Assembly: GCA_951804945.1 (NCBI GenBank)
Contig: OX638162.1
Location: forward strand, 29,698,001-29,762,000
Length of the DNA: 64,000 nt
Reading direction: 5' to 3'
DNA from: Podarcis cretensis
Lineage: Eukaryota
Positions within the stretch are counted from its first letter, which is position 1; the number at the start of each line of letters is the position of its first letter. The translations under genes and the position numbers were made by a program. A model generated the notes under the pieces. The model was not told where the DNA came from and made no database searches. It saw only the letters and a list, made by a program, of their open reading frames with translations. Positions 11,320 through 27,155 of this stretch are shown here, piece by piece.

Positions 11320-13901
11320 GGGTTGGTTTTTCAAGTTTGAGTGCATGCAATTAATTATTAAGATAGGAACTTCAATCTCAAATCTTGCTAACTTCCATAT
11401 CAATCAGTTACCTAGAAAAGCATTTGTGTGCTGGTTCTGATACAGTTGACAATATATTGCGATGGGTCAAACTGGGACAGTACACTCCAGCTCTAAAGCA
11501 TTTTCCACTTATTCCTTCACCTTCTGTGTCGTGGAGCTTACCTGAGGAAGCTTGGATCTCCCTGTACTCCCCCGCCCCCTCAACTCCTGTATTGGGTTTC
11601 ACATTGTGCAGGGAGGAAGTCCACTGTTGTGAAAGGGGAGAGGCGTTGTCTTTGCTGGTCCACAGCTGTGGCTGGTAGATCTGGCTTCAGATGGCATTCC
11701 TTTGCTGTGCGTGTTTCTAACACTGTATCACAGAGAGTTCAGGTCTGGGAAATAAAGCTCACATTGGAACACCCACAGGAAGTTAAAATGATGGTGTGCC
11801 TTGTAGGTCTGACCTGCTGCAGGTTAGTGCTGACACACCTGTCTGCCTTGAGAAGCATTGACAACAATGCTATGACTTAAATAGACAGCAGAGGGGTGGT
11901 TGTGTTGTGTGAACTTCATTCCCTCCCAGTCATTGTGTAGCATGCAGAGCAACTGAGCAAGGAAATCGCAGCCCTCAACAGACTAGCTTAGCAATGCTGT
12001 GTATGTCAGAAATTACATTTAAATGCTTTTGTAAACTTACATAGCCTTGTAGGCCAACTAATGATTTACTGTTTCCTTTTAAAAACAAATCCTCAGTTGT
12101 CTTTAAAGATACTGCCTTCCAAGTGTGTAATTCTTCTGAGTTATGATTTCCATTACTTGAGTTATGGACCCTCCAAGACCCCATCCCTGCTACTCCTGAA
12201 AACCCAATGCTTTTTTATTCTGGTGCTCTGACTCTAGCAATTCTTGGATGGAAGATGAGCCCTGCCAGCATTAACCCACCTGTGAGGAAGGTGACGCAGA
12301 ACCCTTCCAAAGTTGGCCAGTAGACCACAGTTTTCTTCCTATTGACCAACCAACACTTTGGTCCAGTTGCATTAAATCTGAAATGTTGAGAGGTTGTTGA
12401 AAAATATTTGAGCTGTTTTGGCTGCTTGAGGGTTTCAAGATTTATTTCATTCATTCTCTCTGTCTCTCTCTCTCTTTATGGCATGGGACCATTGAGGACC
12501 AGGCAAAGGGCCTCATCTCCTCACCAACACACATGCCCAGACAGACACTCTTGTTGTCTAGTTTGGAGGTTCAATGGAAAGCAACTTGTTCTCTGCCAGC
12601 TCCAAGGCTGCGTGTTTCTGACAAGCAGGTCCCTGTTTCTTTTGCCTCTGAATATTTTCTCATAAGAGAGAGCCCTTCTCCTAACCTGTAGGATGCTTTG
12701 TTTGTTAAAGCAGAAGCTTTCCTCTTAAATAACCTATTTATTTTTCATTGGATTGTGTGCGCTTTTTTTCAAACAAGGATTCTTACAAGTCGCTTCACCA
12801 TCCATTTGGCCAGATTTATTTTCTGCTAGGTTGAGAATCAAGTCTCTTTCCCTCCGCCTCCACGGGAAAGAGGGAGAATGTGAAAAAAAAGAAAAAAAGA
12901 CTTTTGCATTGTGGTGATTGGCACAGCCTGTGAATCAAGGGTCATTTTGTGTAGCTGTTTCTTTTCAAGCATTCTCTCTCTCTTTCTTTCTTTCTTTCTC
13001 TCTCTCTTCCCCCTTCCATGCACAATCTATTCAGGCTGGAAGCATTCTTTCTTTTCAGAGTCTTTTCTGCCTCTCTCTCTCTTTTCCCCCTCCTTTATTT
13101 TTCATCTCTTTTCATTCTGTTTCCCTCCACCACCCCCCTAGAGGCTCTTTTTTCCCCTTTCCTCATTCCTCTATTCAGTTCCCTTTTTTTTTTGGTTGCT
13201 TCTTTTAAAATAGCTTTTCTATTTTCAGAGAGGACAGGGAACATGTAGGAAGAGAAGTCGTTTCAGAAAGGAGGAACCTGAAAGTCTTTCTCCATTTATT
13301 TCAGCAAACGTTGTTTTTCAAGCAAGAGAACCAAGGGCGACAAAAAGAAACCCAACTTTATTTTGTTCCCACAAACAGCGCAGCCCCAAACACCCCCCAG
13401 AGTATTCATAAGTGGTCACATCTCCAGTAATATGCTAAAATACTGGCAGCTTTGCTTCTTTATTATGTTGCCCTGGGCATTTTGGTGCAGAGACTAGAAA
13501 CACAAGAGGCATGGCTGCTTTCCTGGATAGACCCCATTGATGCCCCTCTTTGCAACTTCAGACATCACCCATTTCTTTTAGCTCTGCACCAAGAGTTGTG
13601 GGGTGCAGGGCCCACTTGGATGCTGCCTTTAGAACAATTTGTCCTTCATGGTGAACCTTCAGCAGGGAGCTTAGGAGATCTCTGTGCTAATGCAGAGAAC
13701 AATTTTGTGGAAAGCAGCAGTGAAGACTTAAAGTTGTGTAATCTCAGGTTTGTAGATCTCTAGATGTGCATTGCTTAAAGCATTGACTAGCCCCCAATAG
13801 CCACGTTAATCAGAATTGCGTGGCGAGTTCCCGCCCCCACCAGGATAAATAAAGACACAAGACACCGTATGTAAGGTTAATTGGGCGAATTAGGCCACAA
13901 C

Positions 13902-13907
13902 TTTATT
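13902..13907 (-). terminator. Poly(A) signal of the retrotransposon
   Basis: AATAAA on minus, followed by a GT-rich element GTGTCTTGTGTCTTT (~13851-13865). Confidence 0.65.
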
Positions 13908-14243
13908 GAATTCAGGAATGAGAGGCATTGGCATAGGCATTGGTCCTAACGGCTATCCGGCTCCAGCCCATTTGCTGGAGACACGGGGAAGGGTTAACCT
14001 TATATCGGGGGAGACTCCCGCAAGGCACGTCGACTAGGAGCTCCCCCGGGTCACCGCTCTGGGGCGTGCCTTTGGCCCACACCTCCATAGGCTTCGGACA
14101 GGGCCACGCCCCCCGGGGTCCTTTAACGGACCACCCTTCGCTCGCTGGGGGGAGGTGATGGCGTTCCTCCCCCACACACATCGTCTTAACCCCTTCTTAC
14201 CAATGCCTACTGCCACACGAGCAAACGCTCGCCGCCAATACTC

Positions 14244-14813
14244 TCATGCCTGAAACCAATCCCTTATCCCCATAGCTATGTCCTCAAGCCATATATCATT
14301 TCCTGCATCAGACAGATGCACGCCATCAAACCAGTAGAGGGCCTCACAGTTGAAACGAATGCCCGGGTGTCGTATGACTTTTCCCCCCAGGGCTGCCACT
14401 CTACGTACCACCGCCCGATCCACGGCTTTCCTCGCCCTATTTATGGCCATCGGGCACCTGCAATCTCTCCAAACCCGCCTCTCCATCAAGGAGGCCCAAA
14501 TGATTGTGAGGTTTGGGTAAGCAGCCTTAAGCTCCTCCAAATCCCCGAGTATGTGCCACTGCAAATCAGCCGCCTTTCTATAGGCCAAATCGTTTTCACC
14601 CAATTGTAAAAGTAAAGCATCCGGGGGGCCCTCTCTCGCGACTCTGGTCTCGAATGCGGGCAACATCTCAGCCCAACGCATTCTCCTCCGTGAAACCCAG
14701 GATATCGTGATGCCATCAGGCAAGCCCAGTCGCGGCCCCAGACCGGAATTGATGGCGCGGACCCTGGCCCAATGCACGATGCTGTGCCCGATTATCCAGA
14801 CGTGCACCCCCAT
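14244..14813 (-). CDS. SGNH/GDSL-type hydrolase (esterase/lipase-like), 189 aa, element-encoded
   Basis: Block I IIGHSIV, block III LQLGENDL, block V DGVHLS; block II appears altered (SRRRMRW). Confidence 0.85.
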   Translation of the reverse strand: MGVHVWIIGHSIVHWARVRAINSGLGPRLGLPDGITISWVSRRRMRWAEMLPAFETRVAREGPPDALLLQLGENDLAYRKAADLQWHILGDLEELKAAYPNLTIIWASLMERRVWRDCRCPMAINRARKAVDRAVVRRVAALGGKVIRHPGIRFNCEALYWFDGVHLSDAGNDIWLEDIAMGIRDWFQA

Positions 14814-14870
14814 ATCTCCTGCAATAAATCAAAGAACAGGCCATGGTCAGTAAAATCCCCAGCTGGGATG

Positions 14871-15800
14871 TCATAAATTCTTTCTCAGGTAGCGCTTGTA
14901 TGCGTCCGATTTCCAGCGGCCTAGATCCTTGATCCTCTCGGCCGTAAGGCCCAGGTGCATTGCCGTGGTGGCCGCTCCAATCCTAAAGGAGTGTGCCGCG
15001 AAATCTGCTGGTGGGAGGCCACATGCTTTAAGTGTTAAGCGCATGACCCTGGTGAACTGGTGCCGCGTCAGGGGTACGCCGTCTGCATGGATCAATAAAG
15101 GCCCCGCCATGTTAGGTCTCATAAACAAGAAGCGCCTGGTGTCCTTCACTGGACACGGGCCTAGTTCCCCTGTTGCCAGTAGCCGGACCAGAGCACCCCT
15201 CCCGAACTGGTCTGTCTTGGAACTACGAATCCGCACGACCAAATCTTCACGTGAAAGTGTAATGTCACTCAACAGTAAGCCCCGGGAGGAGCCATGCTGA
15301 CCTTCCTCAAAAACCACCTCACCCACATGCATTGCCCCGAAAAATGCGATAGAGTATGCCGCTGAAAACAAGCGTGCCTCATACTTTGACCAACAGACCG
15401 TTCTCAACCTTTTATGGATTTGGAAAAGTATGTCAAAAGATATAGGCCTCCTCGCATCCCGGGCTGGGGGCTGCAGTCTACGCCAGCCTTCTAGGGTCTT
15501 TCGTATGACGAACTCAGCGCATGGATCTGACGAAAATAACGCTTTGCAAAAGAAAGAAATCGCTGTGGCCTGTAAGTTGAGGGTTTTTGGGGCACATCCC
15601 CGGCATTTCAAGTGCACTAGATAGGACAAGACCTCAGACCTGATGGGAGGGGCGTTGCTCCTGGCGGGGCTGGATTTTTCACGGAACTTTAAGAAATCCG
15701 ACCACGCCTTCCTATAAGACCTCAATGTGGAGGGCGCCAATGAGGCTAATACTCCCTGAATCACTTCTGGTTCCCAGGACTCTGGTCCCCAAGTCTCCAC
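14871..15800 (-). CDS. Tyrosine recombinase (lambda integrase family), ~309 aa; true start uncertain
   Basis: SLAPSTLRSY N-terminal region; FFGAM[H]VGE, SKTDQ, HSFRIGAAT, GRWKSDAYKRY motifs; frame open from ~15892; track start is GTG. Confidence 0.92.
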   Translation of the reverse strand: METWGPESWEPEVIQGVLASLAPSTLRSYRKAWSDFLKFREKSSPARSNAPPIRSEVLSYLVHLKCRGCAPKTLNLQATAISFFCKALFSSDPCAEFVIRKTLEGWRRLQPPARDARRPISFDILFQIHKRLRTVCWSKYEARLFSAAYSIAFFGAMHVGEVVFEEGQHGSSRGLLLSDITLSREDLVVRIRSSKTDQFGRGALVRLLATGELGPCPVKDTRRFLFMRPNMAGPLLIHADGVPLTRHQFTRVMRLTLKACGLPPADFAAHSFRIGAATTAMHLGLTAERIKDLGRWKSDAYKRYLRKNL

Positions 15801-17479
15801 AGCTGTTCCGGGAAGGGCTGAGGTAGTAACTGAGCATCCGGTGCTAACGAGCGGAAGCGGTCCATCTGAAAACGAGATAGGGCATCCGCGATGTCATTGT
15901 TAACACCAGGCACAAATTTAGCCGAGAAGTGGATATTAAGTTCTAAACAGCGGAGAACAAAGGAACGCAGAAGGGCACCAACTCTTGAGGAATGCGCGGC
16001 CTGCCTAGTAAGGACTGCTACTACCGCCTGATTGTCGGTGTGGAAGCAAACCCTATGGTTGCTAAAGACCTCTGACCATAGGTGGATTGCCACTACAATC
16101 GGGAAGAATTCTAGGAAGGTTAGATCTCTGGTAATGGGCCCTCCCCTCCAGGCTTCAGGCCAACGCTGAGCACACCATTGCCCCTTACAATAAACGCCAA
16201 ACCCGAGGGAGCCTGAAGCGTCCGAATGCACTTGAAAGTCCACCTGCAGTGACAAGTTCTCTTGCCATAGGGAAATACCGTTGTAGTTCTCGAGGAACTT
16301 CAACCAAACTTGTAAGTCAGATTTTACTTCCCTAGAAAGCCGAATCCTATGATGAGGGGAACGCAGGCCTGCCGACAGCTTCGCGAGGCGACCACAGAAA
16401 GGACGGCCAGGGGAAACCACGCGGCAAGCAAAATTTAGATGACCAAGAAGAGCTTGTATCTGCCTAAGTGTAACTTTTTTAAGGGGGAGGAGTTGCTGAA
16501 TGAGGTCACCAAGTGCCACCAGCTTCTCTCTGGGCAGTTTTGAGGTCTGCGCTACAGTGTCCAACTCGATGCCTAAGTAGACCATGGTTGTAGCTGGGCC
16601 CTCCGTTTTGTTGTTGGCTAGGGGAACTCCTAGCTCCCCTGCTAAAGATATGAAAGCTTTGAGAAGCTCTGCACACCCCTGCCTGCTATCAGCCACGAGG
16701 ATAAAGTCGTCCAGGTAATGCGACACACCCTCCGAGCCAGTTCTAAAGCGAAGGGCCCAGTCCAAGAAGGTACTGAATGCCTCAAAGGCTGCGCAGGCCA
16801 CTGAGCAACCCATGGGCATAGCTTTGTCCACAAAATAAGCCCCCTCAAATTTGAATCCGAGGCACCGGAAATCTTCCGGGTGCATTGGCAGAAGCCTAAA
16901 GGCCGACTCGATGTCACATTTTGCCAGCCACGCTCCCTTACCAAATTCGCGAATGACTTTGACCGCATGGTCAAAGGTGGCGTATTTCACTATACAGAGC
17001 TCCTGCGGTATCGCATCATTGACGGACCCACCTTTTGGATAGGAAAGGTTGTGAATCATGCGAAACTCGCCAGGCGCTTTCTTGGGGACTATGCCTAAAG
17101 GGGATACATGAAGGCCAACGATTGGCGGAGCTAGAAAGGGACCGGCTACCCTACCTGCTTTGATTTCTTTGCTAATTTTCTTCCGGGCCACCTCCGGCAT
17201 CTCCCTGACTGACTTCTGATTGGGGGGGTTGCCCGAATTGGGTGGAAACGCTACCGGGATTCTGAAACCAGTACTAAAACCCTCCCATAAGTACACTGCT
17301 GCTGTCCTATTGGGGTAGATGTCTAAGAGGTTTTTTAACGGGGCCAGCTTGATGGGGGAATAGGCCAATTCCAAATTAAGGTTACTGCCTGTTCCCTTGA
17401 GGTCCGAAAGAGGCTCCCTGGCCACCTCTGGGACCGTGATTGTAAGAGCCCCTTCCACCCCGAAAGGGCTGCCTCCCTT
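15761..17479 (-). CDS. Reverse transcriptase + RNase H (pol), probably expressed as a gag-pol fusion
   Basis: KCDIESAFR, MPMGCSVAC, YLDDF; RNase H SDAS, FLEFFPI, TDNQAVV, DIADALSR; frame opens just after TGA at 17482-17480. Confidence 0.95.
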   Translation of the reverse strand, partial: KGGSPFGVEGALTITVPEVAREPLSDLKGTGSNLNLELAYSPIKLAPLKNLLDIYPNRTAAVYLWEGFSTGFRIPVAFPPNSGNPPNQKSVREMPEVARKKISKEIKAGRVAGPFLAPPIVGLHVSPLGIVPKKAPGEFRMIHNLSYPKGGSVNDAIPQELCIVKYATFDHAVKVIREFGKGAWLAKCDIESAFRLLPMHPEDFRCLGFKFEGAYFVDKAMPMGCSVACAAFEAFSTFLDWALRFRTGSEGVSHYLDDFILVADSRQGCAELLKAFISLAGELGVPLANNKTEGPATTMVYLGIELDTVAQTSKLPREKLVALGDLIQQLLPLKKVTLRQIQALLGHLNFACRVVSPGRPFCGRLAKLSAGLRSPHHRIRLSREVKSDLQVWLKFLENYNGISLWQENLSLQVDFQVHSDASGSLGFGVYCKGQWCAQRWPEAWRGGPITRDLTFLEFFPIVVAIHLWSEVFSNHRVCFHTDNQAVVAVLTRQAAHSSRVGALLRSFVLRCLELNIHFSAKFVPGVNNDIADALSRFQMDRFRSLAPDAQLLPQPFPEQLWRLGDQSPGNQK

Positions 17480-18989
17480 TCATGCAGGCCGTAGATGGGT
17501 GACTACCAAAACATCTTTCACATTCGTGACTGTACTTACAGGCCGGCCTCACACAAACCCCTTTATTAAATTCCCAACATAGGCGCTTCTGCTTGGCGGC
17601 GGTCCTCCAAGATTTTGATGGATCCTGGTACTTTTTTTCCACGAAGGGGCCCACATGGTCCGACCAATAGTTTTGGTCCCTCAGGTCCCAGCGCGTGGAG
17701 GGTAGCAAAGAAGCATTTCTACGAAAATCCTCGTCGTAATTCAAAGCAGCAATATCACCCGCTAATTCCCGCGCCCTCCGAATATGGGCCAAGTATGCAA
17801 TCAAATGCATTGCCCGTTTAGGATAAGCAGCGCTGACCACACCCATGAACACCTGGAACCCATTGAGCCAATTGTCGAAGGTATGCTCGGCTCTTGGTGC
17901 TCTGTACCTGCGCTTCCCGTAACTGCGCCTCTTTTCTCCTTTCCCTGTCAGTTTTGCGGGGGGCAACAATCTGAATATGTCAATAAAATCCCCATTGAGG
18001 ATTTTGTCCCTTTTCCTTTGAGATAAGTGGTTGCCTACAATGAAATCTGAGGACAAGTGAGTGGAGGTTTTTACGTCGGGCACCAGGGAGCCATCCTTCC
18101 ATTCCAGTGTCCCATTGAAGGTCTTACGGTAGGAGTTGGCCCTCCTTTCATGCGCCCATGCGGGAAGACCCACGCAATCCTCCCCATGGCCCCAATACTC
18201 CTCCCTAGGAGCATCACTATCAGAATCGGATGAGGAAGAAGTACCTGAGTCCTCCTCGGATTCCGACCGCCTGCTCTTCTTGCTTTTCTTGGACGTGTGC
18301 TTCCTTTTTTCTTTCCTCTTCCCCCACGGGACCTCAGGGGGGGTCTGCTCCGGAATGCTACTTGCAATTACCGCCTGTCGATCGTGCACTTCCTCATCCG
18401 AAGTTGATTCCGACGCGCCCTCGGCTGGCGCCGTCTGCGGGGGCAGGATCTGAAAAAGACTAGGTACACCTGGGTCCTTTTTAGGGTTAGTAGCCTTAGA
18501 GCCCTGGGCGCTAGCCTTGCCCTTCGCGGCTCCCCTCTGGCCTCCTCTTGACTTGCCTGAGGAGGCCGACTGAGAGCTGGTGTTTTTCTTAAGCCGTCCT
18601 GCAGCCTTTTTTGCCGCAGTCAACACAGCCACCGTGGATGCAGAAGTGCCGGGAAGTACTACCTCCCTAAGTTGAGAGTCTTCGATGTAATCCTGGGAGA
18701 ACGCCATTGGTGCAGAAGGCGCTGATGGTCCTGCTGCCGTTGTCATTGGCGACACGATTACTGGTGCAACCGCTGTTGGCGCTGTCGTGATTGTCGTTGG
18801 AGCTGCTGCCCCTGGCGCGGGTGCCGCTTGGCCTGCGGACCTGCTTTGTTTATAAAACTCCTGAAAGGCAGTGAAAAACTGGGCCAAAGCCTGAGGGTTA
18901 CTAGGAATAAGAAATGGTTGAGACTCCTCCTGGTTCCCTTGGTTCCCCCCAGATACAGCGTCATTTACCTGATTACCCTGAGCCGACAT
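17382..18989 (-). CDS. Gag-like protein, 535 aa, with C-terminal Cys/His zinc-finger cluster
   Basis: ATG at 18989 (MSAQGNQ); low-complexity Ala/Ser/Lys N-terminal half; CWEFNKGVCVRPACKYSHECERCFGSHPSTAC; RG-rich tail. Confidence 0.85.
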   Translation of the reverse strand: MSAQGNQVNDAVSGGNQGNQEESQPFLIPSNPQALAQFFTAFQEFYKQSRSAGQAAPAPGAAAPTTITTAPTAVAPVIVSPMTTAAGPSAPSAPMAFSQDYIEDSQLREVVLPGTSASTVAVLTAAKKAAGRLKKNTSSQSASSGKSRGGQRGAAKGKASAQGSKATNPKKDPGVPSLFQILPPQTAPAEGASESTSDEEVHDRQAVIASSIPEQTPPEVPWGKRKEKRKHTSKKSKKSRRSESEEDSGTSSSSDSDSDAPREEYWGHGEDCVGLPAWAHERRANSYRKTFNGTLEWKDGSLVPDVKTSTHLSSDFIVGNHLSQRKRDKILNGDFIDIFRLLPPAKLTGKGEKRRSYGKRRYRAPRAEHTFDNWLNGFQVFMGVVSAAYPKRAMHLIAYLAHIRRARELAGDIAALNYDEDFRRNASLLPSTRWDLRDQNYWSDHVGPFVEKKYQDPSKSWRTAAKQKRLCWEFNKGVCVRPACKYSHECERCFGSHPSTACMKGRQPFRGGRGSYNHGPRGGQGASFGPQGNRQ

Positions 18990-19224
18990 ATCTTCAATCA
19001 ACGCCCTGGATTGCCCAATCGGAGGCAAGAAGCTTAGTTGTTATGTGTTAGCAACAAGCAGTGGTCTGTACTGTAGTTCAGTATTGACTGCACTGGACGG
19101 ACTTAGCACAAATTAAAATCACTGGTAAGCGACCCAACTGCCAGCCCCACTGGCTGTGTTAGCGTCAAGTAAGATATTAGCTCAGTACTGTCTGCACCGG
19201 TATTGCTCTAGCTGGTATAAAATT

Positions 19225-19350
19225 AATGGTTTCTTATTTTTATTTTATATTAATTTTTATATTAAATTATATTAATTTATTCTATTTTATTTTTTTATTT
19301 TTTTATTTTTTTATTTTATTTATTTATTTATTTTATTTATTTATCTATTC
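19225..19350. repeat. AT-only low-complexity tract, (TTTA)-like
   Basis: Direct reading. Confidence 0.85.
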
Positions 19351-19663
19351 ATATAACCTTATGCAATTAAACCAGCTGATCACTAAGTTGACCACTTAGC
19401 CAAATTAGGAAAATTAAGCTATACCCTTACAGCAGCGAGGCTAGACTGCCCGTGCCTATGTAATTAATTAGATGCCAGTTAAATCTCTTGCAAAGTAGAT
19501 TAGGTCTAGATAACCTTTAAAATTAGATTATATTGATTAGAGGCACACTTGAACTAATTATGCTTTACCCAAGGCAAGCACTTTAATTTAAGCGAAATCA
19601 GCAACGTAAAAGCACCAAAACTAGATCAAATTCAAAGAAATAAAATCTGAGTACAATGAAGCA

Positions 19664-19910
19664 AAGTAAAATAACAAGGAAAATGGATGAAATTAGGTTA
19701 AATCAAATTAATTTAAATCGAAGTAAAAATAAGGCCAATCGCAGTAAATTAAGGCCAATAACAGTAATACCAGCAAAGTAAAATAAAGGAAGTAAAATAA
19801 CAAGGAAAATGGATGAAATTAGGTTAAATCAAATTAATTAAATCGAAGTAAAAATAAGGCCAATCGCAGTAAGGCCAATAACAGTAATACCAGCAAAGTA
19901 AAATAAAGGA
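19664..19910. repeat. Tandem duplication of a ~120-126 bp unit in the element leader
   Basis: AAGTAAAATAACAAGGAAAATGGATGAAATTAGG starts at 19664 and again at 19790. Confidence 0.9.
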
Positions 19911-20533
19911 ATGAAGCAGTAAATCCCAGAAATGCCAGCAAATAAAATCAAGTAATAAGGCAGCAAAGGAGTGACGACTGAATTGCCTGCGCAGCACCCA
20001 CTGCAAAGGATTGAATGCTAGTTGCTGCTCGGCCAGAAATAAATTGCCCCTTAAATCACCTTTCAAATTTACTAAAGAACCAAGTTAAGATTTATTTAAA
20101 TGATAAGAACAATTGTGAGGCAATTGCCAAACACACACACTCCCACAGGTGACTGCCTATACTAAGATGGCGGCCACTACGGAAGCAACGTGCTCCAGCA
20201 AAATGGTGCCGGGACCAGCTGGTCGCTAGGCAATGGTGCCGACCGCTGTTGAACAGATCAATCCGGCCCTAAGAAAGCAAGCGTTGTAATCAAATGCCAA
20301 CAAAACGAATGAGTGTAGCACGAAATTAGACGTTGCAGAAAGTTAGAAGTTAAACCCACTTTCCTAGTACCCTCCTGAATTAGCCAAAGCAAGGATAAAG
20401 ACGCAATAAAGACTTAGTTCCCACGTGGCTTGCCTCTCTTAAAATGGCTGCCGCCGCAAGGCCACGTGGTTAATCAAAATGGCGGCTGCAAGCTACCCGT
20501 TGCCTAGCGACGCCGCACAATTTCCCAGTTCAG

Positions 20534-20596
20534 GGCTATCAGACAAATACTATCAGGCACTGCAGGCTATCAGACAAATACTATCAGACAAATACT
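20534..20596. repeat. Short repeat CTATCAGACAAATA x3
   Basis: Direct reading. Confidence 0.85.
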
Positions 20597-21224
20597 AGCC
20601 CCGATTCAGGGCACGCCAAGCTGCAAAGTAATGAGTAAAGGCTAGCGCTGCACTTCGAAACGGCTCCTAAGCCGTAGTGGCACAAGCGGACCACTCGACC
20701 GGCGAGTTCCCCCCCCAAAACCAATACGTTACCGCTGCTGCCTTCGGGTTCACTGGAGATCACCCGTGCGGCCGGAGAGAGGGGAGGAAGATGCCGGAGG
20801 GTGGCTGCGCGGACGGTAACCAGCTGGCTGGCGGCTGGCGGGCTCCCGCAGTTACGAGGTGACCGCAAAGGATAGAGTAATTCACCCGAAGAAGTCGAAG
20901 CGCTGAAGCGGTTCCTGCAGGATGAATGAGGCAATGGCAGCCGCAAGGAGAAGGTGCTCTGGCCGCTGCGAACCAGCCTTTATTCTTAGGCTAACACCGC
21001 CAGCTGTGCAGCGGAGCGGCACGAAGGAGGCAGCCGAGGTTCCTTTTCGCCGGCGAAAGAGCAGGTCGGGAAATCCTTGCAGCGGGAGTGGAGCAGTGGG
21101 AGAAACAGTAACCAAAGCCTGTAAAGGAAAACTAGAAACCGCGTAATTGAACCAAGCACAGAAACCTGCAACAAAGTATACGAACCTCCAGGAAGACCTC
21201 CAAAACGTGGGGGCGAGCCGGCGA

Positions 21225-21425
21225 AAAGAGGGCGAGCCCCCTCCGCGCTGGCCCTAAATAGGGCAAGCCACGCCCCCCAGCCGACCAGCTGATTGGCTAG
21301 CTGGGGGGGGGCAGGCCCCGACGGGGAATCCCCTGCTCTCGCGGGGGCTGGTGCCAGCCCCCGCTCACGTGGGGTGGGCGTGAGGCCCGCAACCCCACCT
21401 CCTGGGGCAGGCCCGGAAGTGGCTT
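21225..21425 (-). promoter_or_regulatory. Putative Pol II promoter of the retrotransposon
   Basis: On minus: TATTTA (21260-21255) and CCAAT (21296-21292); also GC boxes, E-box CACGTG (~21366) and ETS CCGGAAGT (21413-21420). Confidence 0.55.
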
Positions 21426-24400
21426 TTTTGAGCTCTGGCAGGATGCCACGAATACAGGCCCTTTGTTTATTACGACTTCCCAGCCTCTTATCTCCTGAAT
21501 TTCATTGTTGAATTAGTGCCTTTTAGTAGTAATTGTCTTCTGTAGTATTGATAACACTTTGCTTTGGGGAAAGAGTGTGAATTCTCCATCCCTGCTGGAG
21601 AGGATCAGGCTTGCAGGTGGTGGAAGGAGAGGTATAGCCAAGGGCAGAAAACTGCAACTCAAGTACTTCTTCCTGTGCCATTAGAGAGAAACCGAGTTCT
21701 TCTGTGAAAGCCTATGATACAAGAGTGCCTGGCCCTTTCTCAGATGGTTCTCCTATGACAACCTTCCCTAAATCAGTGGCTTCCACATGCCACCTCCCAT
21801 CAGATCCAGCATCACATGGCTGGACTGGCTGGGGTTGCAGTCCTACGTCAATTCCTCAACAAGAGATGGTTGGTCAAGAAATGAAGACGGGAGTCATCCA
21901 GTAGACATGGATTTCCAAAGAGAGAAGTGGAACAAGTCTTGAGAGCCAGAGTGTTGGGCTAGGTAAACCTCTGTCCCAGTCCAGCAAAAGCCAATTCTCA
22001 GGTGCTTATGCTTTTATTCGTGTCAGGGCATAAAAAGTCTGAAGGGGGCTGATGTAGATGCTTGTTTTCTGTGATGGAGATGCTCTCAAAAGTAGGAGGG
22101 TTGAGAGAACCTGCTTCAAATGAAAGCAAAGGTACAGATGACTAGGGAATAGGGACACACCTGTCTGGAATCCAAACATGCACCTGAGTTGGTTCTATGG
22201 TGATGGTGATGTGCCTGCTTCTGTGGGAAGCAATCCTGGCTGTCCCTACGTAGCGGTTGGATCTGGTTGGTTTCTTGAAGGTTGGCTTGGTGTGAAGAGT
22301 GTCCCCTTCAGGTAGGAAAGTGGGTCTTGGTGTGGGTGGTCAGCCACACACTTTGGGGATTAAAGAGGGAGGTAGCCAGTGAGAAGGGACTCCATCCAAA
22401 ATCCATACACCTTGCAGAGCCTGGCTTTGAAAGTTTCTTCCACCCACCCACCGAAATATGTGATTCAAATCTAATGTCACCTGGAAGCTGAGATGGGACA
22501 TTAGAGGAGATGGAGGTGGGTGAGAGAGCGGGGTTGGAATACAGAAGGAGATTAAGAGATTGATGAAAGTGAGAGAGAAAGAGAGAGGAGATAAGAGAGG
22601 CACACAGGACTGAACTATCAAGCTGAGAGAGGCGTTGCCAGGGTAACGGAAAGAATGAGGGAGAGAGAGAAAGATGGAGAGAAGAGGCAAGAATCAGAAA
22701 TGGAAGGGAAGTGAGAGGGAGGGAGAGCAGGCAATGGATTTTAAAGGGTGAATGAGAGAAGCAGATGGGTTTTAAAGGCTGAAGCGGCTGGACAGGCTGA
22801 CACACACACGACAACTAAAAAAAAAAAAAGCTGCCTATGCCCACAATCAATAATTCTAGGTGGGCTACCCTCTGGCACCTTTGCTTAGGATTGCTACCAT
22901 TCTGTGCCCAGGACATGCCGGCTGGCACAGAAGTGGCTGCCATCATGGCCAGTCTCCAGCTTCAAGGCTGCCTCCTGTGAGGAGGGAATCAATACTGTTG
23001 TTCCCCTTTGCCTCTACAGCCCATTGACATGAAAGTGTGCTTAACAGGGGCCCTCCTTGCATTGTGGTGGAGCTTGCATGCAAAATGGGTCAGGCACGGA
23101 GGCCAGCCTGCGGGTCACCACATGGCCTTCTCCTGCTTGTCTCTGGGTGACCTGATGGGCCCCTTCTTGGCCCTGCTGCGCTCATTGCCGCCTCCGCCTC
23201 CTCTAATCCTCCCCCATACCCAGCCTCCTTCCTTCCTTCTCTCTTCCTTTCTTCTCCGATGCCTGCCAGCCCCCTCTTCTCTTCTCCTTCCTCCTCTCTC
23301 CTTCCTGCCTCCTCCCCTCTCTCCTTTGTTTTGGCTGCCTCCATACACTGCTTTCTCCTTCCCCCTCCTCCCCCCACCTGCCTCTTGCTATCTTTCCCCC
23401 CTCCATTTCCTCTTTTTGTCTTCCCTTGTTCACATTTCTTTTCTCTGCACCAGCCATCCTCACCCGCACAGGGTTTAAGAGCATGCAGGCAGCTCTGGCG
23501 GAGAATGAGGTTCATTTATTTCCAGTGGTTCAAAAGTGGGAAGTTCTGAGGTTGTTCTGTCTAGCTGTTCCCTTTGCCTCAGGGTTAGTCCAAGCCTGGC
23601 TTGTCTTTCTGCTCTGCACCCAGGAAGACTGGCTTTGTATTTCAGGTGAAGAACAGTTATTCTGCCTCTTCTGGTCCTGCTAGCCCCATACTGGGGGAAG
23701 AAGCAGTATCCCCCCCCCCCATGCTCTCCTCTCTCTGTCTTAGCTTTCTGGTTCTTCCCAGTCACACAAAAAGCACATACTGAGAGGGGAGGTCCTAGGG
23801 TTCTAAGGGCTGCCTCCTAGGTCCGAGTCCTGCCTGGCCCTGCTTGCCACCTTCACAACCAAGGAGGCTGCTGTGCCCTTTCTTGTAGAAAGGAATCCAG
23901 CCCAACCTGGTGGGCGACAACATCCCAGTACCTGGGGAGGTGCAGCAGTCAGACTGCCTGCTCTTTCTAGAAGTGCAGAATTTGCCACATTTGGGGAGGC
24001 TCCTGACCTGGCATGCAGAAACCTTCCCCCCAGGTATCAGATAGAAGGCCACAAGATTTTGCTACACCCTGAGCCCTTTACAATAAAGAATAAACACAGT
24101 GCAACTGAGCCATTGTACAGGGCTCTATGGAATACCGGTATATGGTTTCTGCTAGTCTTGGGAAATGGTAAGGATATAAATGTCTGGCCTGTCATCTGGC
24201 CACTAGGCATTCCCACCACCACCATCCCTCATTCTGCCAGTGAAGCACACCCATGTTTAGATTGCAGGTTTTGCTCCATTTTCAGGAGTGCAGAATATTT
24301 GTTTAGCTCCAAAACATGGGATGCTTTCTGGTTCTAAGCTCTGCCCTTTGGTGTTCCTTTCATTTTAAAGGCTATGTCCAGAGTAGATGCCACTTTCCAT

Positions 24401-24529: not shown

Positions 24530-25954
24530 ATGGACCGCTTTGCCCACTCTGGAACACAGACAGATGCCGTGGTGGTGCTGTCTCTGGCCCAAGCAGCCGT
24601 CCTGGGCTTGGTGACTGAGAACGAGTTTTTTGGTGCCACCGTCAGCCCCGGAGGTTTCTTCTCCAGCTTCGCAGGCAGGCTCGACGGCATGTCCATGGTT
24701 GAGTTGAAGCAGCCGGAAAGCCATTGCCCTCTGGAGAATGAAGGCCAAGGTCACATCGAGCCAGCGGAGGAGGATGAAGCAGCAGAGGCTTCCTTCGGGA
24801 AACATGCCCGGAGGAGGAAGCGCCCGCCTGTGAGGCTGGTGCCAAAAGTGAAGCCTGAGAAGGGGGAGTGGGGGCAGGAAGACGGCGCTTACGAAGCATC
24901 AGTAGCAAGTGAGGGCAAGGAGGAGCAGATGGGCAACCACCCTGTGAGCCTGGAGGAGTCCCCCTGTGAGCAGACAGTGCAGAGCAGCGCTACCAAGATG
25001 ATAGATCTCAGCACATTCAACAGGAAGCCTCGACGCCTGCGGCACCTGCGGCAGCAAGCTCCAGAAGAGCTGTCCCTGGGCGGGTATGAGGAGAGGCTCC
25101 CAAGCACCCCACAAGCCAGCCTGGACAGCACTCCGGGGAGTGCAGAGGTCTTCTCCAGTGACTGTGGCTTCCAGGCTGGTGCTCCTCCTCCCTTGATCAA
25201 TCTGGAGCATCCTGTACCACACTCTCCTCCGGGGCAGGGCAAGAGCGAGCTGGGCTTTGTGTGGCAGGAGCCCCTGGACTTTGAGGCGGAGGCCCACGGC
25301 GAGCACAGCAAGAAGGTTCAGCTGGACCGCCTGGACATCAATGTCCAGATAGACGACTCCTACCTGGTGGAGAAGCGTTGGCNNNNNNNNNNNNNNNNNN
25401 NNNNNNNNNNNNNNNNNNNNNNNNNNNNNNNNNNNNNNNNNNNNNNNNNNNNNNNNNNNNNNNNNNNNNNNNNNNNNNNNNNNNNNNNNNNNNNNNNNNN
25501 NNNNNNNNNNNNNNNNNNNNNNCTCACCCACCAGGGCACGCGGCCCCACAAGTGCCAGGTGTGCCACAAGGCCTTCACCCAGACCAGCCACCTCAAGCGC
25601 CACATGCTGCTGCACTCCGACATCAAGCCCTACAGCTGCCGCTTCTGTGGCCGCGGCTTCGCCTACCCCAGCGAGCTGAAGGCCCACGAGGGCAAGCATG
25701 AGAGCGGGCGCTGCCACGTCTGCGTGGAGTGTGGCCTGGACTTCTCCACCCTCACCCAGCTCAAGCGCCACCTGGCCACCCACCAGGGGCCCACCCTCTA
25801 CCCCTGCCCAGAGTGCAACAAATCCTTCCATTACCGCAGCCAGCTGCAGAACCACATGCTCAAGCACCAGAACGTGCGGCCCTTCGTCTGCACCGAGTGT
25901 GGCATGGAGTTCAGCCAGATCCATCACCTTAAGCAGCACTCGCTGACCCACAAG
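24530..25954 (+). CDS. ZNF710: ZNF710 coding exon 1 (C2H2 zinc fingers; contains a 140-N gap)
   Basis: Acceptor TTCCTGCAG ending 24498; MDRFAHSGTQTDAVVVLSLAQAAVLGLV; LDRLDINVQIDDSYLVE; C2H2 fingers; donor AAG|GTAGGC. Confidence 0.95.
25383..25522. other. Assembly gap (140 N) inside the ZNF710 CDS
   Basis: N run. Confidence 1.
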
Positions 25955-26384
25955 GTAGGCCAGGCAGCAGAGCACCAGCTTGAAGGGCGGGGGGGGGGTG
26001 TTGGGTAACCGAAGCCTTTTCCCATCCGTGGCTCTAAGGGCTTTTATAGAGGAGTGTGTGTGTGTCTACCTGCAGTGCCCTGAAGGGGTACCCAAAGGGC
26101 TTCACCTTAGCTGGCTTGCTCTTTTTGTTGTCCTTGGTCACCACAGACCTGGATTCTGAAAAAAGAGGCCTTGCCACAATTTGGGTTAAAACAGCTTCCA
26201 TAGGAGGGAGGGAAGGAGTGGGGATCCAAAATGCCCTGGTCTCTTCCCCCTTGCTCTGAAATCCCCCAAACACTACTGAGCATGAAATCACCATGGTTAG
26301 CCCTGTCCTCCTTGGCAAAGGTGGGATTGGGTGGTACCTCTTGGCTGCAATGAAGCCTTGTTACCTGCTTGCTGTTGTCTTCAG

Positions 26385-26576
26385 GGCGTGAAAGAGTTCA
26401 AGTGTGAAGTGTGTGGGCGAGAGTTCACGCTGCAGGCCAACATGAAGCGCCACATGCTGATCCACACCAGTGTGCGCCCCTACCAGTGCCACATCTGCTT
26501 CAAGACCTTTGTGCAGAAGCAGACACTCAAGACCCACATGATCGTCCACTCGCCCGTCAAGCCCTTCAAGTGCAAG
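26385..26576 (+). CDS. ZNF710: ZNF710 coding exon 2
   Basis: AG/GT-flanked 192 nt; GVKEFKCEVCGREFTLQANMKRH...KPFKCK. Confidence 0.95.
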
Positions 26577-26980
26577 GTAGGTGGCAGAAGTGCAAAGAGC
26601 AGAGGCTGCCGCGGGTGGTGGAATATGAAGAGCCTGAGATCAGGGCTGCTGCCAGGGCAAAGCGGAGTGGCAGAGCCTGCAAAGACAGGCCAGACTCAAC
26701 TCCCAGAGGGGCAGTGGTCATTTCCAAAACACACTTCCCACATGAGCAACTGGATGCCCACATATCCACCCTCCTCTCAAGCACAGCTTAGTCATTCCGG
26801 TTTTGCCAGCTGCCTGGACTGAGCTGAATGTGGAGTGGATCCTGGTTCTTGGCCATTGGCCAGGAAGGGGAACTGGGGTGGATGCAAGCAGGTGAATCCC
26901 TCCCCTGCTGCCCACAGTCCAGGCTGCCCCAGCCTCCGCCAACAGGTGATCCTCTCCTTTTCCCACCCCACCTTCCGCAG

Positions 26981-27155
26981 GTGTGTGGGAAATCCTTCAA
27001 CCGCATGTACAACCTCCTGGGCCACATGCACTTGCATGCAGGCAGCAAACCCTTCAAGTGCCCTTACTGTTCCAGCAAGTTCAACCTGAAGGGCAACCTC
27101 AGCCGGCACATGAAGGTCAAGCATGGGGTGATGGACATCAGCCTGGACAGCCAAG
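26981..27155 (+). CDS. ZNF710: ZNF710 coding exon 3
   Basis: 175 nt; VCGKSFNRMYNLLGHMHLH...MDISLDSQ. Confidence 0.95.

Follow-up and report, generated by a model that had tools for sequence, protein, structure and literature searches.

A conserved UUU_CGN motif as the predicted +1 frameshift site between gag and pol in a Ngaro-like retrotransposon of Podarcis cretensis

Background

The Xenopus element DIRS-53_XT (PMC9210276; papers are cited here for those parts of their texts that were available) is a Ngaro-like retrotransposon that carries gag, reverse transcriptase/RNase H (RT/RH), tyrosine recombinase (YR) and SGNH hydrolase in overlapping open reading frames (ORFs), has split direct repeats of the form A1...B1-A2-B2, and lacks a methyltransferase. 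The same gene content and repeat plan characterise the element reported here, which lies on the minus strand of a 64,000-nucleotide stretch of Podarcis cretensis DNA (contig OX638162.1, positions 29,698,001 to 29,762,000; this whole stretch is called the window and all coordinates refer to it). The portion of text available for DIRS-53_XT states no mechanism for Pol expression, whereas the window element has a defined site, CCC_UUU_CGG, at which a +1 ribosomal frameshift is predicted to join gag to pol.

Described signals of this type come from other kinds of genome. In influenza A virus, PA-X is made by a +1 shift on UUU_C within UCC_UUU_CGU (PMC3498833). The window site has in common with it the UUU_CG core, the direction of the shift, Phe in the ribosomal P site, an Arg CGN codon in the A site, a pyrimidine-rich E-site codon and the lack of an evident 3' structure. 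Unlike PA-X, the element and its relatives have CCC in the E site (some subfamilies carry CTT or TCC there, and distant relatives vary) and use all four CGN codons; the predicted product is also different, being the essential Gag-Pol of a nuclear retroelement. The amalgavirus ORF1-ORF2 junction (PMC5052127) and vertebrate ASXL1-TF (PMC5644247) share with it a polymerase or transframe ORF that is in +1 and has no start codon, a conserved in-frame UUU_CGN, the use of all four CGN codons, the existence of some lineages without the motif, and evidence of a comparative kind; amalgaviruses are double-stranded RNA viruses and ASXL1 is a host gene, whereas the window element is a retrotransposon. A +1 Gag-Pol shift in a retrotransposon has its precedent in Ty1 and Ty3 (PMC5052127, PMC3498833), which are long terminal repeat (LTR) elements with another motif (CUU_AGG_C in Ty1, PMC5052127) and a need for a scarce yeast tRNA. 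Among 51 surveyed animal LTR elements only two had pol in +1 (PMC5009743), and the first 300,000 of the 449,034 characters of that source contain no mention of DIRS or Ngaro.

As far as the available literature goes, startless pol expression in DIRS-order elements has been left to general guesses. No report of UUU_CGN, or of a gag-pol shift site, in DIRS or Ngaro elements was found in that literature (e.g. PMC3783388, PMC8547959, PMC3266345, PMC6681497, PMC13003380, PMC9210276 and PMC7192593, in the parts available), the texts covered being other than the original descriptions of Ngaro, Repbase and supplementary files. The element type and the signal are each known, and it is their combination that appears to be new. 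In this study, we describe the predicted site, its conservation within the P. cretensis genome and among distant relatives, and the arrangement of the element in which it lies.

Methods

Copies from the same genome were gathered as 150 loci; the scored matches numbered 150 among 882 candidates, and a part of these scored matches was included. A pol match was present in 148 of these and the other two were dropped; merging of duplicates left 101 distinct gag-pol junctions, spanning 53-100% identity in the Pol N-terminal region. For tree-based counts, 41 of the 101 were excluded as broken or short, and the 60 intact junctions were reduced to 39 representatives with less than 92% nucleotide identity. 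Synonymous changes were counted on a tree of these 39, using 25 conserved two-fold codons upstream as controls.

Distant relatives were obtained from a metagenome scan, for which the best 80 of 483 matches were used. Of these 80 loci, 14 gave no usable call for gag or for the start of pol, seven were not in the +1 arrangement and three had a broken gag. The loci were clustered at 80% Pol identity (41 clusters) and at 70% (31 clusters). Distant Gag proteins were also compared; a conserved YDEQFR motif inflates the count of Phe-Arg (FR) in the linker that precedes the zinc finger, and a Pro-Phe (PF) test was relied on instead.

Results and discussion

The gag-like ORF of the window copy (17382..18989, minus strand) encodes 535 amino acids from the ATG at 18989, with a CCCH + CCHC zinc-finger pair (17484..17579, minus strand) followed by an Arg-Gly-rich (RG-rich) tail. 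The fingers end five codons ahead of the Pro codon of the predicted shift site, CCC_UUU_CGG in the E, P and A sites, which lies in the gag frame at 17460..17468 on the minus strand, as an earlier note on this DNA had claimed. Gag and pol are both coded in an overlap of 27 gag codons (17382..17462, minus strand), with the Gag tail in frame 0 and the Pol linker in +1. A one-base slip at UUU_C would lead into TTC GGG GTG GAA of pol, reproducing the junction peptide QPFGVEGALT proposed in that note, and the predicted Gag-Pol is about 1075 amino acids long (509 + 566). The pol ORF (RT + RNase H; 15761..17479, minus strand) has no conserved AUG. It is +1 to gag and in the window copy opens after a TGA at 17482-17480, as described in that note, but the TGA is not conserved and most close copies have TTA in its place. 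The TGA was therefore rejected as a functional signal, being specific to this copy. The first pol ATG does follow the YP...GF..GFRIP stretch, but it lies 88 codons past the site (at 17200) and not about 86.

Conservation at the junction was concentrated on the motif itself. YYY_TTT (Y, pyrimidine) was found in 99 of the 101 distinct junctions, and in the remaining two the gag junction itself was missing. The next two bases were CG in 92 and CA or TG in seven, which we read as products of CpG decay. A synonymous TTC at the Phe position, which the earlier note had named as refuting evidence, occurred in none of the 101 junctions. On the tree, the Phe codon was TTT in 39/39 representatives with no synonymous change, compared with 4-14 changes (mean 8.1) at the control codons; suppressed synonymous variation at an in-frame TTT-CGN had been set beforehand as the test, and within this genome it was passed. 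The Pro codon was CCC in 36/37 representatives with one change, and four other Pro codons showed 11-12. The Arg codon of the site was CGN in 38/38 and never AGR, whereas seven other conserved Arg positions used AGR (R, purine) in 2-23 of 34-38 sequences. By comparison, the third base of CGN changed 13 times on the tree, and the Gly codons that follow were equally free. The conservation of the motif exceeds chance, and at the level of these alignments a fixed CC-TTT-CG with free flanks is the pattern expected for a UUU_CGN signal. The claim that this element uses the motif to make Gag-Pol is thus supported by conservation; the slippage itself is what we infer from it.

The frames around the site were also informative. 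Over the stretch that separates the site from the end of gag, the +1 frame was free of stops in 39/39 representatives and the -1 frame was stopped in 13/39, while a +1 stretch of equal length upstream held a stop in 10/39. A -1 frameshift was rejected, as pol lies in +1 and those 13 representatives have no open -1 frame; slippage on the G-run 3' of the site was rejected as well, the run not being conserved. Upstream of the motif the +1 frame was open for 4-167 codons. No conserved pol AUG was found among the 39: in 16 the open frame had no upstream in-frame ATG, and in the other 23 such ATGs were scattered. The first downstream pol ATG, where reached, was 10-219 codons past the site.

These observations bear on the possibility that the motif reflects ordinary coding constraint, with Gag Pro-Phe-Arg lying over Pol Pro-Phe and Pol starting upstream at an AUG, at a near-cognate codon or by reinitiation. 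A change of TTT to TTC would indeed turn the pol Phe into Ser. The +1 frame also often extends well upstream without a stop, an in-frame ATG lies somewhere upstream in 23/39 representatives, and ACG or ATG stands at column -65 in 28/39. We nevertheless consider this explanation very unlikely, because in 10/39 representatives, the window copy included, a stop 4-15 codons upstream closes the +1 frame and no ATG intervenes, the pol residue that follows Phe is variable, adjacent codons of the overlap change freely, and the position of the site relative to the zinc finger differs in distant relatives.

Nine copies from this genome (L061, L066, L068, L118, L119, L126, L136, L137 and L144) had gag and pol fused in one frame, open for up to 1099 amino acids. 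The fusions arise where a single base has been lost within the overlap or close to it, for the most part from a homopolymer run, and may represent decay or assembly error.

Splicing offers another route to pol, in which a donor in the leader or in gag would be joined to an acceptor in the gag tail, with CCCUUUC as part of the splice signal. Conserved acceptor-like sites do lie ahead of YR and the hydrolase, and a phase-1 GTAAGT occurs within the Gag zinc finger in 24/39 representatives. At the gag-pol junction, on the other hand, no AG column was shared by at least 60% of the 39 representatives from -74 to +229 of the motif, and the best candidate acceptors varied among copies in both position and phase. 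A pyrimidine tract should also tolerate exchange of T and C, yet TTT is frozen, and the bases that come next are purine runs. The motif is moreover enriched in the gag frame alone among distant relatives, as described below. A spliced pol message is judged unlikely, although it is the least improbable of the three alternatives considered. In contigs from four runs, none of the 15 joints listed (of 97) fell at the gag-pol junction; these contigs have no bearing on splicing or expression.

Among the 66 metagenome loci in which both genes were called, pol was +1 to gag in 59. An in-frame TTT_CGN was present within the overlap in 22 of 41 clusters (17/31 at 70%), and 19 of 41 were without it, so that the conservation test holds for part of the distant relatives and fails for the rest. 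Counted by frame, TTTCG occurred in the overlaps 26 times in the gag frame and 2 and 4 times in the others. In-frame TTTCG was found 26 times per 3034 overlap codons versus 17 times per 9283 upstream codons (p 6e-7). Within overlap Phe-Arg pairs, TTT was associated with CGN (26:3 versus 4:10, p 1e-4), an association not seen upstream (p 0.2). The motif often followed the last +1 stop by 11-60 nucleotides, and lineages differed in which side of the zinc finger it occupied. FR was the commonest dipeptide in Gag tails (52/125), and in 123 distant Gag proteins the residue next to a PF near the zinc finger, on its C-terminal side, was one whose codons start with C in 44/56 cases, against a background of 0.32. 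Named members of the distant Gag set come from gecko, anole, girdled lizard, toad, scallop and pearl oyster, and Xenopus Pol proteins were about 49% identical to the window Pol. No relative was found in the viral contigs searched with the pol alignment, which was used because gag is too divergent to serve as a query.

Five of the metagenome relatives without TTT_CGN (L155, L158, L161, L174 and L179) had an in-frame TTT_CAA in the overlap. TTT_CA occurred 15 times in overlaps versus 11 times upstream, where the codons counted were three times as numerous. TTT_CAA is a candidate variant shift site. A separate clade (L196-L200, L203, L210-L217, L219, L221 and L226) has pol in +1 and an overlap of 260-330 nucleotides; neither TTT_CGN nor TTT_CAA was found in the representatives of this clade that were examined.

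RNA structure was considered in two respects. A 3' stimulatory structure was unsupported, with a folding z of -0.63 for the window copy and a mean z of -0.45 over the 39 representatives. Alternatively, CCCUUUCG could form the 5' arm of an RNA hairpin serving packaging or replication, without any shift at the site. In local folds of most of the 39 lizard representatives CCCUUU does pair with a downstream G-run, and RNAalifold gave a 5-base-pair stem over the site from seven sequences. The pairing register nevertheless moves between copies and depends on G-U pairing to Gly codons, no stem pair among the five shows change on both sides, many metagenome sites are unpaired or weakly folded, and a hairpin would leave the frame-specific enrichment unexplained. 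It is the least credible of the three alternatives.

Taken together with the PA-X precedent, the sequence comparisons make it very probable that Gag-Pol is produced, at low abundance, by PA-X-like +1 slippage of tRNA-Phe at UUU_CGN. The full-length RNA would be translated from the gag AUG, and most ribosomes would end at the gag TAA and yield the 535-residue Gag. With CCC_UUU_CGN in the ribosome, tRNA-Phe would be held on UUU in the P site and the CGN Arg codon would stand in the A site. A small share of ribosomes would then re-pair from UUU to UUC, skip one base and enter pol, giving a Gag-Pol with both zinc fingers, RT and RNase H at a high ratio of Gag to Gag-Pol. A 3' structure would seemingly not be required, and, by analogy with PA-X, a single tRNA-Phe species would do the re-pairing. 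The same analogy suggests a slippage efficiency of about 1-2%, with Gag-Pol at perhaps 1% of Gag.

Several points weigh against slippage. By the PA-X mutagenesis, the window copy has the weaker variants at both flanks, CCC and CGG, and its shift efficiency could be below 1%. In PA-X, changing UCC to CCC or CGU to CGG lowers shifting without abolishing it (PMC3498833), and the window variant is for this reason expected to work at low efficiency. The 39 representatives are interrelated, so p-values overstate their independence. The upstream +1 frame, often open for tens of codons, and the ACG or ATG at column -65 are also unfavourable, and the same element appears to splice for YR and the hydrolase. 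Among distant relatives the motif is not universal (five of the 19 clusters without TTT_CGN have TTT_CAA and one has TTT_CCA). The share of TTT_CGN among Phe-Arg pairs, 26/43 in overlaps versus 17/42 upstream, did not differ significantly (p 0.08, or 0.22 when clusters were formed at 70%). The protein itself may account for some of the FR excess, as the tails of Gag are rich in RG and RF, the same dipeptide in reverse, is frequent in them too (37 versus 70 FR).

On balance, we lean towards a broader reading of these sequences. The PA-X-type UUU_CGN +1 shift would be an old and widespread Gag-Pol route of a large animal Ngaro clade, from lizards to marine invertebrates, in which the site has changed place relative to the zinc fingers, ahead of them in some lineages and behind them in others, so that Gag-Pol keeps or drops them; UUU_CAA would be a variant, and YR and the hydrolase would come from phase-1 splicing and not from -1 frameshifting. 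Many natural variants of a poorly understood shift site would then be present in animal genomes. If slippage is confirmed, the UUU_CGN mechanism would extend from RNA viruses and ASXL1 to a class of nuclear retrotransposons. The site is precise and can be tested with a short reporter, and its natural variants (CCC, CTT, TCC, AAT and GGG in the E site, all four CGN codons, and possibly CAA) form a series for dissecting how +1 slippage is stimulated. The shift may also explain the split or artificially joined proteins that gene callers give at such loci.

The YR and hydrolase ORFs likewise have no conserved AUG. At the opening of the YR frame, in the pol motif ADALSRFQ, there is a splice-acceptor-like site with a pyrimidine tract and CAG in phase 1 (15866..15885, minus strand). 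This CAG was present in 13/13 full-length stretches from the same genome, and the Gln codon of ADALSRFQ was CAG in 63/64 metagenome cases, many of which are near-identical loci. Ahead of the hydrolase lies a second phase-1 site, with a branch-like CTGAC, a pyrimidine tract and CAG (14819..14850, minus strand); a YAG was found exactly 20 nucleotides 5' of the first conserved hydrolase Trp in 12/12 copies holding the hydrolase. From these patterns, both proteins are probably reached by splicing to the two acceptors, and since both are in phase 1, one shared donor is suggested. Poulter and Butler (2015), as quoted in the available part of PMC13003380, offered programmed -1 frameshifting from RT to YR as a guess. 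The YR junction of the window element instead resembles a splice acceptor, and splicing is favoured because the CAG is kept in 63/64 distant Gln codons. The GTAAGT in the Gag zinc finger (17534-17539, minus strand; phase 1) is a possible donor, although coding for Cys-Lys-Tyr alone can yield it.

The window copy carries, in order on the minus strand, gag, RT/RNase H, YR and an SGNH/GDSL hydrolase. The gag-like ORF has its nearest named homologues in Podarcis and Zootoca, which fits a lacertid lizard as host; its zf-CCCH_10 match was weak (E 0.011), and the zinc-finger Cys/His residues were invariant across distant homologues and the 39 representatives. Pol matched RVT_1 (E 7e-14) and has an intact YLDD; its RT_RNaseH and RVT_3 matches were weak and under the Pfam cut-off, the motifs being nonetheless present. 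The Pfam matches of pol gave RT/RH only, with no methyltransferase domain. The YR ORF (14871..15893, minus strand) is -1 to pol, has no early AUG, and matched Phage_int_SAM_4 and Phage_integrase (E 0.003); the match was under the Pfam cut-off and the motifs are present. The first catalytic Arg position of the window YR is His, whereas it is Arg in 11/11 relatives with the motif matched. The hydrolase ORF (14244..14828, minus strand) matched Lipase_GDSL_2 (E 3e-6).

The 5' terminal repeat A1 (21202..21426, minus strand) matches both A1 (86%) and A2 (93%) of L231, a full-length relative, as well as those of L239, and homology to other copies stops at 21426. At the other end, a single copy of the 3' terminal repeat B (13816..14215, minus strand) matches B1 and B2 of L231, L239 and L240, with homology stopping at 13816. 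Of 12 full-length relatives, six have the whole set of split direct repeats, A1...B1-A2-B2, among them L231 at 94% identity; in the window copy only A1 and a single B remain, with A2 and the second B absent. No terminal inverted repeats were found in the element. The earlier designation as a YR retrotransposon was borne out and could be refined: given split direct repeats, a hydrolase placed after YR as in the amphibian-type group, and no methyltransferase, the sequence places the element as a Ngaro-like YR retrotransposon of the DIRS order. A DIRS1-like assignment was rejected, there being neither terminal inverted repeats nor a methyltransferase match. Several split repeats of the full-length relatives were 100% identical, and on this basis these relatives are taken to be young insertions.

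Several close copies (L232, L233 and L234) stop at the same base as the window copy, 13816, after a single B and without A2 and B2. These ends look as if they arose by B1/B2 recombination or represent an alternative insertion form. Contig depth was far greater over the terminal repeats (13700-14220 and 21000-21500) than between them, and 14206-21331 is left out at one contig joint, which suggests many non-autonomous derivatives or an A2/B junction. Between A1 and the gag AUG lies a long leader (19000-20100; GC content 0.33) with local tandem duplications, strongly variable among copies; this AT-rich region may be an intron. Beside the element, on the plus strand at 25600-27060, is an array of C2H2 zinc-finger-like repeats that is probably a host gene.

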